The position numbers were made by a program, and so were the translations under genes. Below are positions 2,235 to 63,272 of a stretch of 64,000 nt of DNA, piece by piece. Origin of the DNA: an uncultured Chloroflexia bacterium (GTDB taxonomy: Bacteria > Chloroflexota > Anaerolineae > CG2-30-64-16); contig CAVOHP010000014.1 in assembly GCA_963695715.1 (NCBI GenBank), positions 154,612 to 218,611 of the forward strand, in the 5' to 3' direction. The notes beneath the pieces were generated by a model, which had not been told where the DNA came from, did no database searches, and saw nothing but the letters and a program-made list of their open reading frames with translations. Numbering within the stretch: the first letter of the stretch is position 1; each line of letters starts with the position of its first letter.

Positions 2235-4326
2235 GTGACGACCCAGATCGCCGCCAGAACCCTTGGGAACTCCCTGACCACCGGCCGCCGTGTACAAGCG
2301 GCCTGGTTGGCCTTCCTGTTGCTGGCGCTCAGCCTGGCGCTGCCCGGCATCGCTCCCTATCGTCAGCTCTTGCAGACGGTCTGCACCGGAGACGGCTGCA
2401 TCACGGGCCAGTTGTCGCCGCAGGAGGCCTGGAGCATCACCGAGTCTGGAGACACCCTGCTTGAGTACGCCGACCTGGCGCTCATGGTTTACCTCTTCGC
2501 CGCTGTGCTGGCCCTGATCACGGCAGGCTATCTGATCTGGCGCAAGTCGGCCTACCCCCCGGCTGCGTCCATGGGCTTCGCGCTCGCGGCGCTGAGCGCC
2601 GCCACCCTGGCTCAGGCCGCCGCGACGACCTATCCCGCGCTGCACCTCCCGGCGCAGTTGATCGGGATCGTTCCGATAGCTGCTGCAACGCTGTCCTTCT
2701 GTCTCATCCCCGACGGTCGCTTTCACCCTGGCTGGCTGCGGTGGGGCGTGCCGGCGGCGATGACAGCCGGGGCCCTGGCAACACTTGGAGTGTTCGGCGC
2801 CGCCATGGTGGCCGCGATCCAAGTGGGGATCGCGGCGCTGATCGTGGGCAGCCTGATCACCCGCTACCGCTCACTGCCGTCCTCGCCGCAGCAAGAGCAA
2901 GTTACTTGGGCGCTGGCAGCCTTCGCGTTGTTCGCAGGCGTACAATGGATCGGCAGACCGCTGCAATGGCTGCCTCTACCCGCACTGCCCGTGTCAGCAT
3001 TCCCGCTGACGTACAACATGTTCATGATCGTGTTCGGGCTGCTGTTGTTCATCGGCGGTCTGACCTGCGTCGCCGTGGCGCTTCTGGGCGATGAGTTGTT
3101 TCGGGTCGAAGTTGCGCTGAATCGCGCCCTGGTGTATAGCCTGCTCACCCTCTTCGTGATCGGCGGGTATGCGCTGGTCGTAGGCTACCTGTCATTGGTA
3201 TTCCAGTCACAAGGCAGCCTGTGGTTCTCGCTGATCGCCACCGGACTGGTGGCGGTGCTCTTCCAGCCGATCCGGGTGCGCGTGCAACGCGCGGTGGACC
3301 GGCTGCTCTACGGCGAGCGGGACGATCCCTATAAGGTCGTCGCCCAGTTCGGGCAGCGCCTCGAGGATACGTTGGAACCGGGCGCCATTCCGACCGCCAT
3401 CGCGGAGACCGTGCGGGCGTCATTGCACCTGCCCTATGCCGCCCTCACCCTGGAACTGAATGGAGCGACTGAGATGCTCGCTGAAAGCGGCGCCTCGGCA
3501 TCTGAGCTGATCTGTTTCCCGCTGATCAACCAGGGCGCGACGGTGGGCAATTTGCTGGTCAGTCCTCGGCGCGGCGATGCGGGGCTGAACGCCGCAGACC
3601 GCGCCCTGCTCACCGACCTGGCGCTGCAGGCGGGTGTCGCGATCCACGGCGTTCGCCTGCTGAACGACCTGCAGCAGTCACGCGAACGATTGGTGCTGGC
3701 GAGAGAGGAGGAGCGCCGCCGTCTGCGACGCGACCTCCACGATGATCTCGCGCCGACACTGGCAGGACTATCATTACGCGCCGGCGCGATCAGCGATTTG
3801 ATTCTGACGGATCCGATCAAAGCGCAAGGCCTCGCAGACGGCCTGGTCTCAGCGATCCGCGACGCCGTGGGCGACATTCGGAGACTCGTCTATGACCTGC
3901 GCCCGCCGGCGCTGGATGACCTGGGACTGCTGGGAGCCATCCGCGAGCGCGCGGCCGATTACAGCCTGGGGTCTGCCGGCGCGCCCGGGCTGACGGGTGG
4001 ATGTGGATTTACCGGATAGGCTGCCGCTATTGCCTGCGGCCGTCGAGGTTGCGGCCTACCGGATCACTCAGGAAGCACTGATGAACGTCATCAGGCACGC
4101 CCAGGCTCACAACTGTCACGTTCGGGTGACGCTGACGGATGCGCTGACCATCGCGATAGAGGACGATGGCGTCGGCCTGTCAGGACCACGTACGGCAGGC
4201 GTAGGACTCCGCTCCATCCAGGAACGCGTCGCCGAGTTGGGCGGCGAATGCAAGATCACATCGGGCGTAGAGGGCGGCACAAGCATTGTGGTGCGCCTGC
4301 CGGTCGCGCAGAGGCAAAGCAAATGA
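2235..4326 (+). CDS. Sensor histidine kinase, NarL/HisKA_3 type, with large N-terminal multi-TM domain; split by one frameshift near 3990
   Basis: GTG start; 8+ TM helices; H-box LHDDLAPTLAGL; second ORF carries the HATPase_c domain (VAAYRITQEALMNVIRHAQA...DDGVGL). The expected GL-VDVDLPDR junction is broken by one extra G in acgGGGtgg (3994-3997). Confidence 0.8.
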
Positions 4327-4976
4327 CACAGCTCCGTATCTTGATCGCCGACGATCATCCCGTTTTCCGAGACGGCTTGCGGGCGGTGCTGGAAGCCACA
4401 TCCGGCGTCGAGGTCGTCGGCGAGGCGAAAACAGGGGAAGAAGCTGTTACTATGGTGGAAGAACTCTGCCCCGATTTAGTTATGATGGATGTGCAGATGC
4501 CCGGAATCAACGGCATCGAGGCAACGCGGCGGATCGCTCGCAATTGCTCCGAAACGCGCGTACTCATCGTTACGATGTTCGAGGATGATGCGACGGTGTT
4601 CACGGCCATGCGGGCCGGCGCGCGCGGCTACATCCTCAAGGACGCAGAGAAGGAGGAAATCCGCCGCGCCATTGAAGCAGTAGGCAACGGCGAGGCGATC
4701 TTCAGCCCGGCCATCGCCGCTCGCCTCATCGCTTACTTCGCCAGTCCGCATCTGACCATGCCACAGCAGACGTTTCCGGAGCTCACCGCACGCGACCGCG
4801 AGATCCTGGACCTGATCGCTCGCGGCGAGAATAACGGCAAGATCGCCGATCTGTTGGGGCTGAGCACCAAGACGGTCAGCAATTACGTCTCGACGATCCT
4901 GAACAAGCTGCAAGTGGCCGACCGCTCCGAGGCGATCGTGCGGGCGAAAGACGCAGGCTTCGGCAGCGCACCCTGA
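4323..4976 (+). CDS. Response regulator, NarL/FixJ family (REC + LuxR HTH)
   Basis: MTQLRILIADDHPVFRDGL...VLIVTMFEDD receiver domain; C-terminal LTARDREILDLIARGENNGKIADLLGLSTKTVSNYVSTILNKL; ATGA overlap with the kinase stop suggests translational coupling. Confidence 0.9.
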   Translation: MTQLRILIADDHPVFRDGLRAVLEATSGVEVVGEAKTGEEAVTMVEELCPDLVMMDVQMPGINGIEATRRIARNCSETRVLIVTMFEDDATVFTAMRAGARGYILKDAEKEEIRRAIEAVGNGEAIFSPAIAARLIAYFASPHLTMPQQTFPELTARDREILDLIARGENNGKIADLLGLSTKTVSNYVSTILNKLQVADRSEAIVRAKDAGFGSAP

Positions 4977-5085
4977 CCGCATGGAGACTCCCGAAACCTG
5001 GATTATGGATTTACGCCGCGCCCGAAGAGATGTTATCCTCAGCTACCATTCAAGTCAACTGTCTCAGAACACGCGAGGTAAACCA

Positions 5086-12275: not shown

Positions 12276-13133
12276 TCAGACGGGCAGCGGGAAACCTTTG
12301 CGGCGCTCTTCCAGATAGGGCCAGAAGCCTTCGGGCGCGTGGGTGGAAATCCAGCCTGCGCGGTCGGCCAGCATCGCGGCCCAGATCGTCTCGGCTTCCT
12401 CCCAGGAAATGCGCTCACCGGCAGGCAGCGCCTCAGCCTGCCGTAGCAGTTCGTCGGAGAGTTGCTTGAAGTAGGCGACCTGGCTGGCGACGATGGCTTC
12501 GCCTTCGCGCCGCGAGGACTCGCGCGCGTTCGAAGGCGACGCGAAAATAACGCCCTCATACGGCTCATCGGGCATCCGGGTGAGGTCTACCAGTTCGGGG
12601 CGCAGCGCAAGCAGTTGCGACGTCTCGCACTTACCGGCGTGGTCGCCGCGATAGCCGCCGTAGCGAATGGCCTCCCAATCGGCCAGCGCGACGGCGCGCA
12701 GGGGCCGTTGCGCGGAGTAGAGCGCGCAGACCTGTTTCATGTCCACCTCGATGCCGCCGTAATGGCCGGTGACGCAGATCGCCGCGCGGAAACCGGCCGC
12801 TTCGGCGGCGCGCAGTTGATAGACGAGTTGGTGGAGAAAGACCTCCGGTGGGACACAGGTCAGATAGGGTGACGGCGCATTCTGACGCGCGAGCCAGTCG
12901 AGGCCGAGCGGCGTCTCATGCACGTGCCACCAGACGGGGGGCGCGACCACACCGCCATGCGTCGCGGCGGCGCGCTGCACCAGGGCATACGCCTTCAGGC
13001 CGTCGAGACCCATGGCGTTCTGCAAGCCGTGCGGCTCACTCAAGCCGAAGGAGAGATAGCAGACCGGCCGCGCAGCGACGGCAGCCTCGAACTCATCCAC
13101 GAACATTTCTTGCCAAAGGACGGATGCACACAT
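12276..13133 (-). CDS. Creatininase-family amidohydrolase
   Basis: CYLSFGLSEPHGLQNAMGLDG resembles the creatininase LPxGxxEQHGPHLPLGTD metal-binding region; 285 aa, intact. Confidence 0.7.
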   Translation of the reverse strand: MCASVLWQEMFVDEFEAAVAARPVCYLSFGLSEPHGLQNAMGLDGLKAYALVQRAAATHGGVVAPPVWWHVHETPLGLDWLARQNAPSPYLTCVPPEVFLHQLVYQLRAAEAAGFRAAICVTGHYGGIEVDMKQVCALYSAQRPLRAVALADWEAIRYGGYRGDHAGKCETSQLLALRPELVDLTRMPDEPYEGVIFASPSNARESSRREGEAIVASQVAYFKQLSDELLRQAEALPAGERISWEEAETIWAAMLADRAGWISTHAPEGFWPYLEERRKGFPLPV

Positions 13134-13390
13134 GGGTTTGCTCCAAATGGGGTGGATTCTCGCGGTGGGACGGGCGGGTTATCCGCTCACCGGTATTCTA
13201 CGCCAACTCGGATGCGCTGCACAAGTGCACCCGCACCATACACGCCGCGTGGCTCTTCTTCGTAGTGGCGGCTTCTACGCTGCCGCGATACTCACGGCGG
13301 CTGATGCGATTAAGACTTACGCCGGTGAGCATTGGCGGTCGCCCGTGATGCTCTACCCTATGACATCCGGAGGAAAAAACGATAGCTTAG

Positions 13391-13468
13391 CGAAGAATCT
13401 CGCTGCGTCAGAGATTCTTGGCTGAGACGTCGCACCGTAACGGTTCTCAGGTCAACCGCTCAGAATGC
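13391..13468. repeat. Intergenic repeated element, copy A (inverted repeat GCGAAGAATCTC...GAGATTCTTGG followed by CTCAGGTCAACCGCTCAGAATG)
   Basis: Shares core blocks AGAGATTCTT, GGTCAACC and GCTCAGAATG with 32139-32200; both copies sit in divergent intergenic regions. Confidence 0.5.
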
Positions 13469-13620
13469 AGCGTACCACTGACGTCGCACTACGAAGAGGC
13501 CTGCGACGCGGTCTGGCGACGGCTTTGACGCATGCCCCGAAAGACGCTAGAATCACCTGTGAGCCATGTTGTGTGGTTCGCCTGTGATCTCTGCCCTGTC
13601 ACATCCGGAGGAACAAAACG

Positions 13621-15328
13621 ATGAAACGCACCTTTGTCTTGCTATCTCTGCTGGCGCTTGTCAGCCTGTTGTTTGCGGCTTGCACGCCCGCCGTGGCGCC
13701 GGCGCCGCCCGCGCCGCCTACCGAAGCGCCCGCCGAAGCGCCCACGGCGATGCAGCCCGTCTTGCCGACGCCCACCGATGCGCCGGCCGACGCGCCTACG
13801 GTCGAGGCAACCGATGCACCGGTCATCGAACCGGCGGGGCTTTCAGCTCCCATGACGCTGCGCCTGCCCGATCTGGAGGGGCGCGAAGTGATCGCCGTGA
13901 CAGAGAACGCCTATACGCCGCTCAACTTCGTGGATCCCCTCACCGGCGAGGCCGTGGGCTGGGAATATGAGGCCGTCGAGGAAATCTGCCGCCGCCTGAA
14001 TTGCACCGTGGACTGGCAGATCTCCTCGTGGGACGCCATGATCCCCGCCGTGAAGGACGGCCAGTTTGACGTGGGCATGGACGGCATCACCATCAACGAC
14101 GAGCGCAAGGAGCAGGTCGACTTCTCCATCCCCTACATGACCTCGGAGCAGTTCATGCTGCGTGCGCGCCGGGGAAGACCGCTTCACCGATGCGGCGAGC
14201 TTTGCCGCGGATGAGAATCTGTTGATCGGCTCGCAGGCCGGCACGACTAACTTCTACACCGCCGTATACGAAGTGCTGGACGGCGACGAGGCGAACCCGC
14301 GCATCAAGCTCTTCGAGACCTTCGGCGCGGCCGTGCAGGCCCTGTTGACGGGCGATGTGGACATGGTGCTGATGGACGCCGCGTCATCGAAGGGGTACAT
14401 CGGCGCCAACCCGGATAAGCTGGAGACCATCGGCGAACCGCTGGGCACGGAGGAGTTCGGCTTCATCTTCACGCCCGGCTCCGACCTGGTCGAGCCGTTC
14501 AACGCCGCCATCGCGCAGATGGCAGCCGACGGCTACCTGGATTATCTCAACAATCGGTGGTTCTTCCACACCGACCCCAACGCAGAAGACATGTATGACA
14601 AGCTGCCCGACCTGGAGGGGCGCGAGGTGATCGCGGTGACGGAGAATGCCTATACGCCGCTCAACTTCGTGGATCCCCTCACCGGCGAGGCCGTGGGCTG
14701 GGAATATGAAGCCGTCGAGGAAATCTGCCGCCGCCTGAATTGCACCGTGGACTGGCAGATCTCCTCGTGGGATGCCATGATCCCCGCCGTGAAGGACGGC
14801 CAGTTTGACGTAGGCATGGACGGCATCACCATCAACGACGAGCGCAAGGAGCAGGTCGACTTCTCCATCCCCTATATGCTCTCGGAACAGTTCATGCTGG
14901 TGCGCGCGGACGAGGATCGGTTCCAGACGCCACAGGAATTCTCACAGAATCCAGACCTTCTGATCGGCTCGCAGGCGGGCACGACCAACTTCTACACCGC
15001 CGTCTACGAAGTGCTGGACGGCGACGAGGCGAACCCGCGCATCAAGCTCTTTGAGACCTTCGGCGCGGCCGTGCAGGCCCTGTTGACGGGCGATGTGGAC
15101 ATGGTGCTGATGGACGCCGCCTCCACACGGGGGTACATCGGCGCCAACCCGGATGCGCTCAAGAGCCTGGGCGAACCGCTGGGGACAGAGGAGTTCGGCT
15201 TCATCTTCACGCCCGGTTCCGACCTGGTCGAGCCGTTCAACGCCGCCATCGAGACGATGCAGCAGGATGGCTACGCAGGATCGCTGAACCTGCGCTGGTT
15301 CTATCTGTACGATTCGGCCGCCAACTAA
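13621..15328 (+). CDS. Lipoprotein with two tandem periplasmic solute-binding domains (amino-acid ABC substrate-binding type); one frameshift at ~14164
   Basis: Signal peptide plus lipobox LFAAC, PA-rich linker, then two copies of [92 protein letters not shown]...SEQFML(V)RA.EDRF...[13 protein letters not shown]...; junction ctgCgtgcgcgcc versus copy-2 ctggtgcgcgcgg indicates a 1-nt insertion. Confidence 0.8.
13859..15305 (+). repeat. Direct tandem duplication, unit ~740 bp, copies nearly identical (a handful of substitutions in the ~290-nt block compared; second block more divergent), spanning one complete solute-binding domain
   Basis: 13860-14150 almost identical to 14600-14890; 14215-14520 nearly identical to 14955-15260; identical spurious antisense ORFs 13911-14129 and 14650-14868 arise from it. 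Confidence 0.85.
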
Positions 15329-15437
15329 TCCCCACGTTCGCACGATCTACGAAGCTGGAGGGCGGCTCGGAAGCAGCCTTTCAGCTTCGTATTTTTGCCG
15401 GGTTCGCAAAACCGCAAATATATCAAGGGAGCGCATC

Positions 15438-16295
15438 ATGAGCGCAGACACACTGACCTCGCCCGACGCACGCAGACCTTCCCTGGGCAAACGCCTGCGC
15501 GGCGTCCCCTACTGGCTGGTCGCCGCGATCATTCTGGCCGTCATATTTCTCTATGTCATGCTGACCGACGCCGATTATCGGGTCATCCTCATGGCCGTCG
15601 CGCAGGGCGTCAAGGTGACCGTCACCGTCACGCTGATCGCCTTCACGCTTTCATTGATCCTGGGCCTCATCATCGGGCTGATGCGCGTCTCACACAATCG
15701 GCTGGCGAATGAAGTCTCGACCTTCTACGTCGAGATTATCCGCGGGGTGCCGATGCTGGTGATCCTGTATTACATCGCGTTCGTCGCAACGCCGGCCATT
15801 ATTGTCCCGGTCAACGCCCTCGGGCAGGCGCTCTTATCTATCGGGATCCTGGCCGATCCGGCGAGGGCGCTGTCGGAAGTGACCGTGCGCCAGATGAACT
15901 TCACGGTGCGCGCCGTCATCGCCCTGACCATCGGATATAGCGCCTTCATCTCGGAGATCTTTCGGGCCGGCATCGAGTCTATCGGACGGGGGCAGATGGA
16001 GGCCGCCCGCTCGCTGGGGATGAGCTATCCCAGGGCCATGCGCTACGTGATCTTGCCGCAAGCCATCCGCAACGTCTTGCCGCCGCTGGGCAATGATTTC
16101 ATCGCCATGCTCAAAGATTCTTCGCTGGTATCGGTGCTGGGGGTGCAGGACATCACACAAATGGGCAAGGTTTATGCGGCCAGCACGTTCCGCTTCTTCG
16201 AGACGTATAATGTGGTCGCCTACTTATATCTCATCATGACGGTGGGGTTGGCGCTGATCCTGCGCGGGGTGGAGAAGAGGATGCCGGATCGGTGA
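15438..16295 (+). CDS. Polar amino-acid ABC transporter permease
   Basis: AAGGGAG ribosome-binding site; His/Glu/Gln/Arg-family permease signature region ...[41 protein letters not shown]; about 8 TM helices. Confidence 0.85.
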
Positions 16296-16331
16296 TAAAC
16301 AGGGGAATCTGTCTGTCATACAGAATCTTCA

Positions 16332-16990
16332 TCAGTTCCGTCGGCGAGTCGAGCACCAGGTCGGCGTCGCGTAAGATCTTGGCGTGTGCCGAAACCACAC
16401 AGCACCCCCACCGACGAGCGCGCCCGCCAACCTTGCCGCGCGCACGTCCAGGTTGGTGTCCCCCACCATCACGCATTGCTCCGGCACAAGCCCTAATTGC
16501 TCGGCGGCCTTTTCGACCGGCATGGGATGTGGCTTGAGCCGCCGCACATCGTCACGCGTGATGACGACCCAGAATAGGTCGCCCAGCCCCTGCTGCGCCA
16601 GGTAAGCGACCGCGTCTTCGCGGCTGCGCGAGGTGACCACACCGAGCATCAAGCGTCTTGCCGACCAGGTCGTGCAGCATCCTCACGCTACCGTCCACCG
16701 GCACGAACTTGGCCGGCTTTCGGTGGCCTTGCAACAGACTGCACGAAGCCATTGGTCTTGAATAGAAGCCCATCCAGATGCAGGATATCCAACGGGTGAT
16801 GACGCGATTGGCAAGACCCTCGTTGGCCATGAGCACCCGGCGGGTCAGGCGTTCGTCTCTCCTCGACCGTGAGAGCGCGCCTCCAGGAAGCTCGACAGCG
16901 ACACAAAGCGCTCGATGATCTGGTCATCGGTTTCGATGAGCGTCCCGTCGAGATCGAACAGGACGGCGCTGAGCGGGCGCGCGGCCACCT
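16332..16990 (-). pseudogene. HAD-superfamily hydrolase split by two or more frameshifts
   Basis: N-terminal [15 protein letters not shown] (motif I) in one frame, middle segment in a second, C-terminal KPHPMPVEKAAEQLGLVPEQCVMVGDTNLDVRAARLAG (motifs III/IV) in a third; start approximate. Confidence 0.55.
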
Positions 16991-17039
16991 TCTCCTCCCA
17001 GGTCACTTTCGGGTCGGGTGAGAGGCTCAGGCCCCGGAA

Positions 17040-18146
17040 ATGGTTCCTGATCAAACAGTTTGCGCCCCACGTAAGAGCCGATCACGCGTAACGAGGCGAT
17101 GGTGGGCGCGGCCAGGAGAACGCCCAGCACACCGGCGATCTGCGGCGCCTGCGGCTGCGCCCACGATGACGATGGCCGGGTGCAAGGCGATCCGGCGGCC
17201 TACAATGCGCGGCATCAGATAGGCGTTTTCGACCTGGCCCAGCAACACGTAGGTCAGGGTCACGACGATGCCGAACGCGAGGTTGGGGATGGGCAGCCAT
17301 GATGAGCCAAGGATCAGGGCGATCAGGACGGCCGGGATGGCCGCCAGTCGTCAGGCCGATGCCGGGGACAAATTCCATGACCGCCGCCAGCAGCCCCAGG
17401 GCCGGCGCGTTACGCACCCCCAGGATGCTCATCAGAATCCACACGATGATGCCAATCACGGAGTTCATGACGAACTGGCCCTGCACGAACAGGTTCCAGA
17501 CCGATGCCAGTTCGCTCATCAGCCGGTCCAGCTCTGGCCGCCAGGCGGCAGGAACCCGGCTCAGGAAGGCCCCGCGAATCCGTGGGCCGTCACGCACGAG
17601 GATGAACACGAGGATGACGATGAAGAAGATCCAGAAGATGCTGGTGACTGCGCCGATGACCACCGATGCGGCGCCGGTCGCGACCGGGAAGAAGTATCTT
17701 TGCAGATTCTGGATCGTCGTCAAGTCGGGCTGAATCACGCTACGCAGCCATTGGTTGACCGGGGTATAGAGCGGGCCGAGATCGAAAGTCAACTCAGGCG
17801 TGATCGTTATCGGTCGGGGCGTGACGTCCAGAAGCTCGGTGATGACACTGACGAGGGTCACGGCAAAGGAGACAAGAAGATTATAGAGCGCCGGTACCAC
17901 CAGCACAATCGCCAGGACAAGAAGCACGATCGCTGAGAGCAATACGATGACAGCCAGCAGCGTCCGCGACCAGCCTGTGCGCCTTTCGAGGCGGTTGACC
18001 GGCAACGAGATTACATAGGCAAAGAGAACGGCCAGGGCGAGAGGACCAAGGATGGCGTGGATGCGAAAGAGCAACCATATTGACCCGATCAGGCCGGCAA
18101 TCACTACCAGTTGCTTGAAGAAGGGACTCCAACGAGTCGTCGTCAC
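17040..18146 (-). CDS. AI-2E-family (PerM/UPF0118) transporter; C-terminal ~90 aa displaced into other frames by 1-2 frameshifts
   Basis: 260 aa of multi-TM AI-2E-like sequence, then the frame degenerates; it continues in ORF 17051-17263 as [34 protein letters not shown]; end approximate. Confidence 0.6.
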
Positions 18147-61693: not shown

Positions 61694-62806
61694 TCAGGCG
61701 GCGACGACGTCGAGCGTTTTCTCGGTCTGCGGATCGAACAGGTGCATGTTGTCCATATTCAGAACGAGATCAATTTCCTCGCCGGAACGGACACTCGTGC
61801 GCGGATCCACGCGGGCGATGAACGATTTCGTCCCCGTCAGCAGGTAGAGGAAGATTTCGTTGCCCATCAACTCGGTGACGTCTACCGTCGCCTTCATCGG
61901 CGCGGGGACGATGCCGGGCGCAGCGTACTGGGTCGAATAGATGTCTTCGGGCCGGACGCCGAAGATGACCTTCTTGCCCTTATGCGGCAAGTAGATTGCC
62001 TTCTTCTTCTCCGGCACTTCCAGCTTGAAGCTGCCGCCATCTACCCACAGCTTGCCGTCTTGCTCGACCAGGGTCACGTCGAAGAAGTTCATGGACGGGC
62101 TGCCGATGAAGCCGGCCACGAAGACATTGGTCGGATGATCGTACAACTGCTGCGGTGTGTCGATCTGCTGGAGGAGGCCGTCTTTCATGACGGCGATGCG
62201 CGAGGCCATGGTCATGGCTTCCATCTGGTCGTGGGTGACGTAGATGAAGGTGGTGCCCAGGCGCTGATGGAGCTTGCTGATTTCCGCACGGGTCTGGACG
62301 CGCAGCTTGGCGTCGAGGTTCGATAGCGGCTCATCGAAGAGGAAGACGGCGGGGTCGCGGACGATGGCCCGACCTACCGCCACACGCTGGCGCTGACCGC
62401 CGGAGAGTTGTTTCGGCTTGCGGTCGAGCAACTGGCTGATGCCCAACATCTCGGCGGCTTCCTTGACCTTGCGGTCAATCTCCGCCTTGGGGGTCTTGCG
62501 CAGCTTGAGGCCGAACGCCATATTGTCGTACACGCTCATGTGAGGGTAGAGCGCGTAGCTCTGGAACACCATGGCGATGTCGCGGTCTTTGGGGGGCACA
62601 TCGTTGACCACGCGGTCGCCGATGAAGATGCGCCCGTCGGAAATTTCCTCCAGGCCGGCGAGGAGGCGCAGGCTGGTGGTTTTACCGCAGCCGGACGGGC
62701 CGACGAAGACCACAAATTCCTTGTCGGCGATCTTGATGCTCAGATCGTTGACTGCCGTAACATCGCCGAACCGCTTGTAGACATGATCGTAAGTTACACT
62801 GGCCAT
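61694..62806 (-). CDS. ABC transporter ATP-binding protein, sugar-import (MalK/UgpC/MsmX-like) type with C-terminal TOBE domain
   Basis: Walker A GPSGCGKTT, signature LSGGQRQRVAVGRA, Walker B FLFDEPLSNLD; AAGGAGA ribosome-binding site; stand-alone (no permease adjacent). Confidence 0.9.
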   Translation of the reverse strand: MASVTYDHVYKRFGDVTAVNDLSIKIADKEFVVFVGPSGCGKTTSLRLLAGLEEISDGRIFIGDRVVNDVPPKDRDIAMVFQSYALYPHMSVYDNMAFGLKLRKTPKAEIDRKVKEAAEMLGISQLLDRKPKQLSGGQRQRVAVGRAIVRDPAVFLFDEPLSNLDAKLRVQTRAEISKLHQRLGTTFIYVTHDQMEAMTMASRIAVMKDGLLQQIDTPQQLYDHPTNVFVAGFIGSPSMNFFDVTLVEQDGKLWVDGGSFKLEVPEKKKAIYLPHKGKKVIFGVRPEDIYSTQYAAPGIVPAPMKATVDVTELMGNEIFLYLLTGTKSFIARVDPRTSVRSGEEIDLVLNMDNMHLFDPQTEKTLDVVAA

Positions 62807-63272
62807 CGGGTGAAATTCTCCTTAGAGTGATTGGAAATCCACAGCCGGGCAAACAGAACTGTTCGGTCGGATAGACTGCGCTCCCGATGGGACGGGCCAG
62901 GCCAAACCTTAGCACGCCCAATGGCCAAGACCGGGTTACTCAGGCTATCGCGGGCAAGCCTGCCAAAACCGTCATGCCGCGGCAACGTGGTAAATGTATC
63001 GAATTAAGTCGGAGGGTAGAGGATATGAAAGAATCATAGCCGAGTGGAGACGGCTCTTGACAGGTGGTCATCCGTCTGAGTCGCAGGCACTCCGCCTTTG
63101 AGTGTTGCACCTCCCAGGGATCAGATCGGCCGCCCTCCATTGGGGGCAGACGGCTCACCGCGAGACAGATGCTTGGCCGCATCTTCACTTGCGTTCCCGT
63201 GAGCTAAAGCACAGTCTACCACAGCGGGGCCGGGTGGGCCAAATTCTCAAAAACAGGTATGCGCGCATACAA

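Follow-up and report, generated by a model that had tools for sequence, protein, structure and literature searches.

We analysed 64,000 nt of DNA (the window, whose own numbering is used throughout) from an uncultured Chloroflexia bacterium (GenBank assembly GCA_963695715.1, contig CAVOHP010000014.1, positions 154,612 to 218,611 of the forward strand), focusing on a lipoprotein gene at 13621-15328 that carries two substrate-binding domains in tandem. With a probability of roughly 0.8, we interpret this gene as an old tandem duplication kept uniform by recombination between its copies, its product as the lipid-anchored receptor of a polar-amino-acid-type ATP-binding cassette (ABC) importer, and the surplus base at 14161 that breaks its frame as a one-base error.

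The repeat and the protein it encodes

Performing a direct-repeat search, we found two long blocks in the gene. Block A (13864-14160 versus 14603-14899, 297 nt) showed 96% identity at a spacing of 739, and block B (14223-14522 versus 14961-15260, 300 nt) showed 92% identity at a spacing of 738. A 297-nt repeat with 96% identity is far beyond chance. Base-by-base alignment defined a repeat unit of 738 nt, or 246 codons, present in two head-to-tail copies; block A is spaced by 739 instead of 738 because copy 1 contains one surplus base. The junction between the copies lies at ~14585-14602. Over 723 aligned positions, the copies mismatch at 100, and their longest identical run is 68 nt. Within the first 92 codons of block A, we counted nine synonymous and no nonsynonymous changes, while at the protein level domain 1 (D1) and domain 2 (D2) are identical at 209 of 241 residues (87%). 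Tandem Repeats Finder reported no repeat, but its longest period (500) is shorter than the 738-nt unit, so this result is not counter-evidence.

An earlier note on this DNA, made from the letters alone, had described a head-to-tail repeat of ~740 bp with few substitutions in its first block and more in its second. The direct repeat and the order of the two blocks agree with our data, and the exact unit is 738 nt. The same note called the copies nearly identical, which holds for blocks A and B but not for the whole unit: the copies form a mosaic, with the mismatches grouped into three patches. It also placed a frameshift at the junction between the copies. A frameshift is present, but inside copy 1, at the end of block A, 297 nt into the copy, where copy 1 reads CTGCGTG and copy 2 reads CTGGTG. 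As sequenced, two open reading frames (ORFs), 13621-14214 and 14162-15328, overlap in different frames; dropping the base at 14161 yields a single frame of 568 codons. The Pfam family SBP_bac_3 (PF00497) matched two stretches of the repaired protein (E 4.6e-62, 208 bits against a cut-off of 26.4), in line with the claim of one lipoprotein with two nearly identical domains of this type.

The protein begins with a signal peptide that ends in a lipobox cysteine, and lipid modification is thus predicted. Ala20 and Cys21 are at least 90% conserved among 57 homologues, and a lipobox-like motif is found in 108 of the 113 full-length homologues. The lipobox is followed by a tether rich in Pro, Ala, and Thr (16, 15, and 8 of the 59 residues counted, 22-80). 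In an AlphaFold model built on 57 homologues (mean predicted local distance difference test score, pLDDT, 85.8), the tether has no secondary structure, and residues 34-75 fall below a pLDDT of 50. The model contains two complete alpha/beta domains (residues 88-316 and 334-562) with a coil of ~17 residues (317-333) between them. Searching this model with Foldseek, we obtained as the top PDB match the SBD1-SBD2 tandem of the glutamine importer GlnPQ (6H30, E 1e-36), while single amino-acid receptors (GlnBP, ArtJ, and AncQR) aligned with template modelling scores of 0.7-0.83. Model and matches together give the two-lobe alpha/beta fold of a binding component of the polar amino acid transport (PAAT) type.

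At the sequence level, the nearest proteins of solved structure are AncQR, a reconstructed amino-acid binder (E 8e-31), ArtJ, and GlnH. In NCBIfam, the domains come nearest to Lys/Arg/Orn, cystine, and glutamine receptors, all below the curated cut-offs. Two residues that we take to hold the ligand carboxylate and amino group in this family of binding proteins are conserved, namely the Arg in D-E-R-K and the Asp in L-M-D-A; this is no more than suggestive of an amino acid or a derivative as the ligand. All differences between the domains fall outside the expected ligand-contact motifs, which suggests equal specificity. Both domains would bind the same ligand because these motifs are identical in the two.

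A pattern of concerted evolution in the two domains

At E <= 1e-20, a protein search gave 787 matches, and we analysed the best 120, mostly from Chloroflexota metagenome bins. Almost all of them are 550-580 amino acids (aa) long and 67-85% identical to the window protein over their full length. A domain profile found at least two binding domains in 120 of the 120; one protein, P0060 (785 aa), has three, with 89-96% mutual identity. Across 80 related loci, the two-domain gene occurs in most Anaerolineae/Caldilineae-type genomes, and shorter genes encoding one domain (270-330 aa) are present in Spirochaetota, Desulfoluna, Devosiaceae, Moduliflexus-type bacteria, and a few Chloroflexota. Comparing orthologues for single or double domains, a check proposed in the earlier note, thus gave the double form in all the best homologues and most Chloroflexota loci.

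To compare the domains by position, 117 two-domain proteins were split into D1 and D2, and all domains were aligned to one profile. Over residues 1-215, D1 and D2 of the same protein share ~0.95 identity. Between proteins, the values are 0.81-0.83 for D1-D1, 0.80-0.82 for D2-D2, and 0.81-0.83 for D1-D2, with no trace of position. The last part of the domain behaves differently. Over residues 216-241, identity within a protein drops to 0.57, while between proteins it is 0.71 for D1-D1, 0.65 for D2-D2, and 0.55 for D1-D2; the nearest neighbour of a D1 tail is the D1 tail of another protein in 115 of 117 cases. Position-specific columns start at 217 family-wide. They include column 236, which is mostly T or S in D1 and always Y or F in D2, and a D-x-Y-D linker motif found only in D1, with D242 and Y244 in 117/117 copies and D245 in 109/117. 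Since this position-specific tail and linker are common to the two-domain proteins, the duplication is older than their divergence.

We checked the same pattern at the DNA level in 31 genomes. At 4-fold sites, D1 and D2 of one genome have a mean identity of 0.84 (range 0.53-0.98), against ~0.50 between genomes in every combination. The tail that escapes homogenisation served as an internal control and gave 0.52 within genomes. Over codons 1-215, D1 is closest in DNA to its own D2 in 25 of the 31 genomes; over codons 217-241, it is closest to the D1 of another genome in 29 of them. Selection at the protein level cannot make synonymous sites alike, and the homogenised synonymous sites therefore point to exchange between the copies.

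The window gene shows where such exchange may have stopped. Mismatches between its copies are clustered, since none of 5000 codon-position-preserving permutations reached the observed variance, and most of them lie in three patches, at domain residues ~103-118, ~174-189, and from 217 onwards. For comparison, we used two relatives, L081 (93-96% DNA identity) and L001 (88%). In patch 1, 32 of 60 nt differ between the copies. Its informative sites are position-specific rather than concerted (29 to 0 against L081, 22 to 1 against L001), and its D1-D2 identity of 0.45 is the lowest of the 117 proteins (mean 0.93). The positional informative sites of patch 2 (alignment columns 520-568) are likewise common to L081 and L001. 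Taking the three patches together, the comparison of the window with L001 gave 57 position-specific sites and one concerted site. The similar blocks gave the reverse, with 20 sites alike within each genome but different between genomes, and only one positional site outside the patches. Conversion therefore appears to have gone on in the blocks after these lineages separated, with the patches being older and stable. The permutation test for clustering and the informative-site counts point to probable conversion tracts. Judged from an alignment with receptors of solved structure, the patches probably map to surface segments where lobe 2 begins and ends, away from the motifs that hold the ligand. 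They may reflect tuning of affinity, or a divergence that became too great for conversion.

From these patterns, we propose that one tandem duplication took place in an ancestor of many Chloroflexota (Anaerolineae/Caldilineae-type lineages). Recombination between the 738-nt copies would since have overwritten one with the other, again and again, over domain residues 1-216, keeping the copies ~95% identical in each genome while the genomes diverged. The last helix and linker of copy 1, unlike the free C-terminus of copy 2, would never have been homogenised. In the window lineage, two more short surface patches would have been spared, giving the observed mosaic.

Several members of the family have other extensions. 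P0082 (819 aa), P0090 (753 aa), and P0093 (650 aa) have two domains and no lipobox tether; P0082 and P0093 carry a LysM-like N-terminal segment, and P0082 and P0090 a Cys-containing C-terminal domain of ~190 residues. The receptor pair thus appears to be fixed to the cell surface in varied ways. The domain is also unusually well conserved between phyla: the domains of Chloroflexota are 70-75% identical to those of Spirochaetota, Desulfoluna, Devosiaceae/Hyphomicrobiales, and Moduliflexus-type bacteria (loci L042-L080), which suggests strong constraint, horizontal spread of the binding-protein/permease pair, or both.

Putative importer partners and competing explanations

The gene that follows encodes an ABC importer permease with NCBIfam matches to GlnP, EhuD, and HEQRo_perm_3TM. 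The two genes are not fused but separated by the stop codon and a 109-nt spacer with a hairpin, and the homologues, at 550-580 aa, are likewise unfused. In almost every related locus, a permease orthologue comes directly after the gene for the binding protein. A single permease without an adjacent ATPase had already been noticed from the letters, and our domain search agrees: there is one BPD_transp_1 protein and no amino-acid-type ATPase nearby. Walker A and LSGGQ motifs occur together in just one ORF of the 64 kb, which lies 46 kb away. It is 34% identical to the cognate ATPase type and over-long for a GlnQ-type subunit, and it probably belongs to a different importer. Among the 80 loci, only five, all from Spirochaetes, have an adjacent GlnQ-type ATPase gene, and two Moduliflexus loci have one upstream. 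A binding protein with one permease and no ATPase is a conserved trait of the Chloroflexota clade. An ATPase in the same operon is common for PAAT importers but not strictly required for membership. In the Spirochaete loci, a stop-to-stop ORF gave the impression of a permease-ATPase fusion; we rejected it as out-of-frame read-through of the permease, the ATPase being a separate, overlapping gene.

We picture the system as follows. The lipid-modified Cys21 and the disordered Pro/Ala/Thr tether of ~60 residues would hold two complete binding domains, connected by a ~17-residue linker, near the membrane. This double receptor would catch a polar amino acid or a close derivative at the cell surface and hand it to the permease encoded directly downstream, probably a homodimer, which would be powered by an ATPase presumably encoded elsewhere in the genome.

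The break at 14161 is the first point on which other explanations depart from ours. When we aligned the window with L081 and L001, the surplus C proved private to the window; protein P0003 and that of L001 read straight across the site. The window has further private 1-2-bp indels at 16384, 16416, 16655, 17021, 17143, and 17347. In L081, private 1-bp indels fall in the same binding-protein gene (13655, 13692, 13711, and 13938) and also in the permease. Different, scattered 1-bp indels in the conserved genes of two close relatives thus bear the signature of long-read consensus errors. The C at 14161 is very probably such a technical (sequencing or assembly) error. The alternative is a true pseudogene, in which the base is real and the binding protein was inactivated very recently. 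The frame is broken as sequenced, the site is not in a homopolymer, and other nearby genes are broken too, which in principle could be genome decay. However, the insertion is missing in both relatives, and the different indels of L081 in the same gene point to technical error in both assemblies. The window-private codon changes in the lipoprotein gene (30 synonymous, 4 nonsynonymous) also indicate purifying selection, at least until very recently. We therefore judge a real inactivation improbable.

We also considered programmed frameshifting at 14161 and rejected it, as there is no slippery sequence, the base is missing in both relatives, and the homologues are single-frame. A neighbouring gene for an AI-2E-family transporter/HAD hydrolase fusion (16332-18146, minus strand) is intact in L001 (606 aa, 3222-5042) and falls into several ORFs in the window because of the private indels between 16384 and 17347. 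The window assembly is indel-prone, and its other apparent frameshifts deserve equal suspicion.

A second possibility is that the domain was duplicated many times, once per lineage. Single-domain homologues do exist in several phyla and in some Chloroflexota, and copy number varies up to the three domains of P0060. But independent events would not remake the same junction and the same D1 tail and linker, with D242, Y244, and D245 and the residue choice at column 236, and for this reason we favour one old duplication followed by repeated exchange. The pairing of D1 tails with D1 tails across proteins argues the same way. The single-domain Chloroflexota genes (L003, L009, L014, and L053) carry a D2-type C-terminus, as a collapse of two domains into one predicts. 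In addition, the domain of L003 shares 95% identity with D1 from a two-domain relative. These genes are consistent with collapsed two-domain genes. The out-group single-domain proteins have a third type of terminus, KWFFEYN, which is consistent with an origin of the duplication within Chloroflexota. Independent duplications are very unlikely. The three-domain protein and the single-domain Chloroflexota forms show that unequal recombination does happen in the family.

The earlier note took the duplication to be recent; were it a lineage-specific event of this kind, the similarity of the copies would simply reflect a short time. The 96% identity of block A and its purely synonymous changes would suit such an age. 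Yet two domains with the same D1-specific linker are present in 117/117 analysed homologues, at 67-85% identity, and near-saturated patches lie beside blocks of 96-100% identity, which uniform divergence cannot yield (0/5000 permutations). The patches also match L081 and L001 position for position. We consider a recent duplication highly unlikely and read the gene as an old duplication under exchange.

A tandem Venus-flytrap sensor or adhesin, comparable to the periplasmic part of BvgS or EvgS, would be another use of two such domains. The periplasmic tandems of BvgS and EvgS (PDB 4Q0C and 9ILW) ranked third and fourth in Foldseek (E 1e-27 and 5e-25), and the ATPase gene is not adjacent. These tandems, however, are N-terminal parts of sensor kinases and only 12-15% identical to the window protein, in which Pfam detects neither a kinase nor any other domain for signalling. 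In nearly all related loci, the gene is followed by an ABC permease whose EAA motif is intact, the Spirochaete relatives have the same gene pair followed by a GlnQ-type ATPase, and both sequence and fold are nearest to amino-acid ABC receptors. A role as sensor or adhesin is thus hard to credit.

An assembly artefact, with one domain expanded to two or a longer array collapsed to two, is a fair worry for repeats in an indel-prone assembly and had been raised before, but its chance is negligible given that the copies are distinguishable along their length, carry different, family-conserved C-termini, and recur in independent assemblies, including L081 and the k141-named L001 (presumably short-read).

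Some points weigh against the interpretation of the gene as a uniformly maintained importer receptor. No polar-amino-acid-type ATPase gene adjoins the lipoprotein and permease genes in the 64-kb window, and a cognate ATPase was found within 6 kb in none of the Chloroflexota loci examined, which leaves the complete transporter putative. None of the substrate-specific or equivalog models of NCBIfam (GlnH, FliY, ArtI/J, HisJ, and others) reaches its cut-off, and no substrate can be assigned. Our homologue set is the top of a similarity ranking, in which distant two-domain and single-domain relatives are unevenly sampled. Gene conversion is read from sequence patterns, and the exchange could have run through gene conversion and/or cycles of unequal crossing-over, between which the present data cannot separate. 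As for the C at 14161, a technical error is the likeliest cause rather than a proven one.

Known systems, feature coordinates, and neighbourhood

To our knowledge, GlnPQ is the only well-studied tandem-receptor system. Its SBD1-SBD2 tandem is known from Lactococcus lactis and related Gram-positives (PDB 6H30; PMC8025302; Fulyani et al. 2013, as related in PMC4245157), and its two domains act independently and differ in specificity and affinity (PMC8025302). The window protein resembles it in carrying two class F-IV amino-acid-type domains on a single chain, with a short flexible linker between them (14 aa in GlnPQ, ~17 here). Both are of the type I ABC importer kind, within the polar amino acid family, and have one permease gene each; 6H30 is the best structural match. 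In GlnPQ, however, the permease itself carries the domains, fused at its N-terminus, and the domains have diverged, whereas those of the window make up a lipoprotein of their own on a long disordered tether and are 87% identical (~95% in most relatives), being actively kept alike. The glnQ gene is adjacent in the GlnPQ system, unlike the window locus with no nearby ATPase.

Single receptors such as GlnH (E. coli, with GlnP/GlnQ), ArtJ, HisJ/LAO, and AncQR (4ZV1) have in common with the window protein the SBP_bac_3 family, the two-lobe fold, and a GlnP-like permease partner. These receptors differ in having one domain per protein and in being mostly soluble and periplasmic. Since the window protein stays under the NCBIfam cut-offs for GlnH, ArtJ, and HisJ, their substrates cannot be transferred to it.

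The tufA/tufB genes and the rRNA operons are the paradigm of bacterial concerted evolution by gene conversion. Paralogues within a genome exceed orthologues between genomes in similarity, synonymous sites are homogenised, and mosaic tracts with escaped segments occur, as in the window family. The difference is that the exchanging units here are two adjacent domains inside one gene, and that exchange ends at a structural boundary formed by the last helix plus linker. The general theory of gene conversion in duplicated sequences has been treated before (PMC3924837, PMC2720389). In a limited open-access full-text keyword search, we found nothing specific on concerted evolution of transporter binding domains or on two-binding-domain lipoproteins.

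Tandem-receptor ABC importers are known; the lipoprotein form with concerted domains appears to be a variant of them, and current understanding is not overturned. For annotation, an intragenic near-identical repeat with a frameshift should not be taken for a fresh duplication, a mis-assembly, or a pseudogene unless relatives are compared; for the window gene, each of these three is either wrong or unlikely. For transporter biology, the data point to a family of paired, lipid-anchored ABC-importer receptors that is widespread and uncharacterised. The two receptors are kept alike, and the family is naturally suited to asking what is gained from a second, identical binding domain. For molecular evolution, the gene appears to be a clean prokaryotic case of concerted evolution between two domains of one protein, with a sharp, structurally meaningful exchange boundary and lineage-specific patches that escape.

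Tentatively, and with more doubt than conviction, we suggest that selection, and not recombination alone, upholds the near-identity. Two equivalent receptors on one tether might raise avidity or local concentration at a shared permease, and continual exchange within the gene might have preserved this state through a deep radiation. The D-x-Y-D helix and linker might then set the geometry of the pair, and the ATPase might be shared with other importers. If true, this would be a design principle opposite to the specificity-broadening divergence of GlnPQ.

The positions of all features are collected in Table 1.

Table 1. Features of the lipoprotein-permease locus and the only ABC ATPase-like ORF of the window
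Feature	Position	Strand	Basis or remark
Promoter-like site, TTGACG-17-TAGAAT, upstream of the lipoprotein gene (putative function)	13525-13553	+	Consensus scan, 10/12 matches
Ribosome-binding site GGAGGA, 8 nt before ATG	13607-13612	+	Read from sequence
Lipoprotein gene, 568 aa, two substrate-binding domains	13621-15328	+	Frame broken by surplus base 14161
Signal peptide with lipobox LLFAAC, Cys21	13621-13683	+	Read from sequence
Pro/Ala/Thr-rich tether, residues 22-81, from lipid anchor to domain 1	13684-13863	+	Composition, AlphaFold
Repeat copy 1: substrate-binding domain 1 with C-terminal linker, residues 82-327	13864-14602	+	Repeat alignment, domain profile
Single surplus C, frame-shifting	14161	+	Absent from copy 2, L081, and L001
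Divergent patch 1 of copy 1, domain residues ~103-118, start of lobe 2	14162-14222	+	Copy 2 partner ~14900-14960
Divergent patch 2 of copy 1, domain residues ~174-189	14383-14440	+	Copy 2 partner ~15121-15178
Domain 1 C-terminal helix plus linker to domain 2 (columns 217-246), position-specific	14513-14602	+	Spared homogenisation family-wide
Repeat copy 2: substrate-binding domain 2, residues 328-568	14603-15325	+	Repeat alignment, domain profile; stop codon 15326-15328
Long hairpin, then UAUUUUUG, between binding-protein and permease genes	15348-15391	+	RNA fold
Permease of an ABC importer (BPD_transp_1, 285 aa), most similar to GlnP/EhuD types	15438-16295	+	Pfam E 1.2e-22; NCBIfam
EAA coupling motif of the permease, intact	15999-16058	+	Read from translation
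ABC ATPase-like ORF, 375 aa, Walker A and LSGGQ	61694-62821	-	Only such ORF in 64 kb, 46 kb away

The spacer between the two genes (15329-15437) folds with -43.2 kcal/mol (z = -4.68), and none of 200 shuffled sequences was as stable. A simple terminator scan did not list its hairpin, which may be a terminator, an attenuator, or an element like the repetitive extragenic palindromes (REP). Such a hairpin could let the cell make more receptor than permease. A scan against Rfam (E <= 1) over 12900-16500, covering the duplicated leader described below and this hairpin, found no known RNA family. The hairpin is a long palindromic element with CTACGAAG...CTTCGTAG-like arms, and L001 has several extra ones at the same intergenic sites (~1960-2080 and 2960-3220), seen as gaps of 16-168 nt in the three-way alignment. 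They are probably REP-like repeated palindromes of the window/L001 lineage.

Upstream of the lipoprotein gene, creatininase-family and nucleoside-hydrolase genes are common only to L081 and not to the other loci, and the genomic context gave no clue to the substrate. The promoter-like segment is unchanged in L081. About 190 bp further upstream (13272-13465) are missing in that relative; they hold a degenerate second leader and ribosome-binding site (13351-13379 versus 13589-13617, 29 nt with 86% identity), in which the ATG has become ATA. This segment looks like the remnant of a small upstream duplication or insertion.

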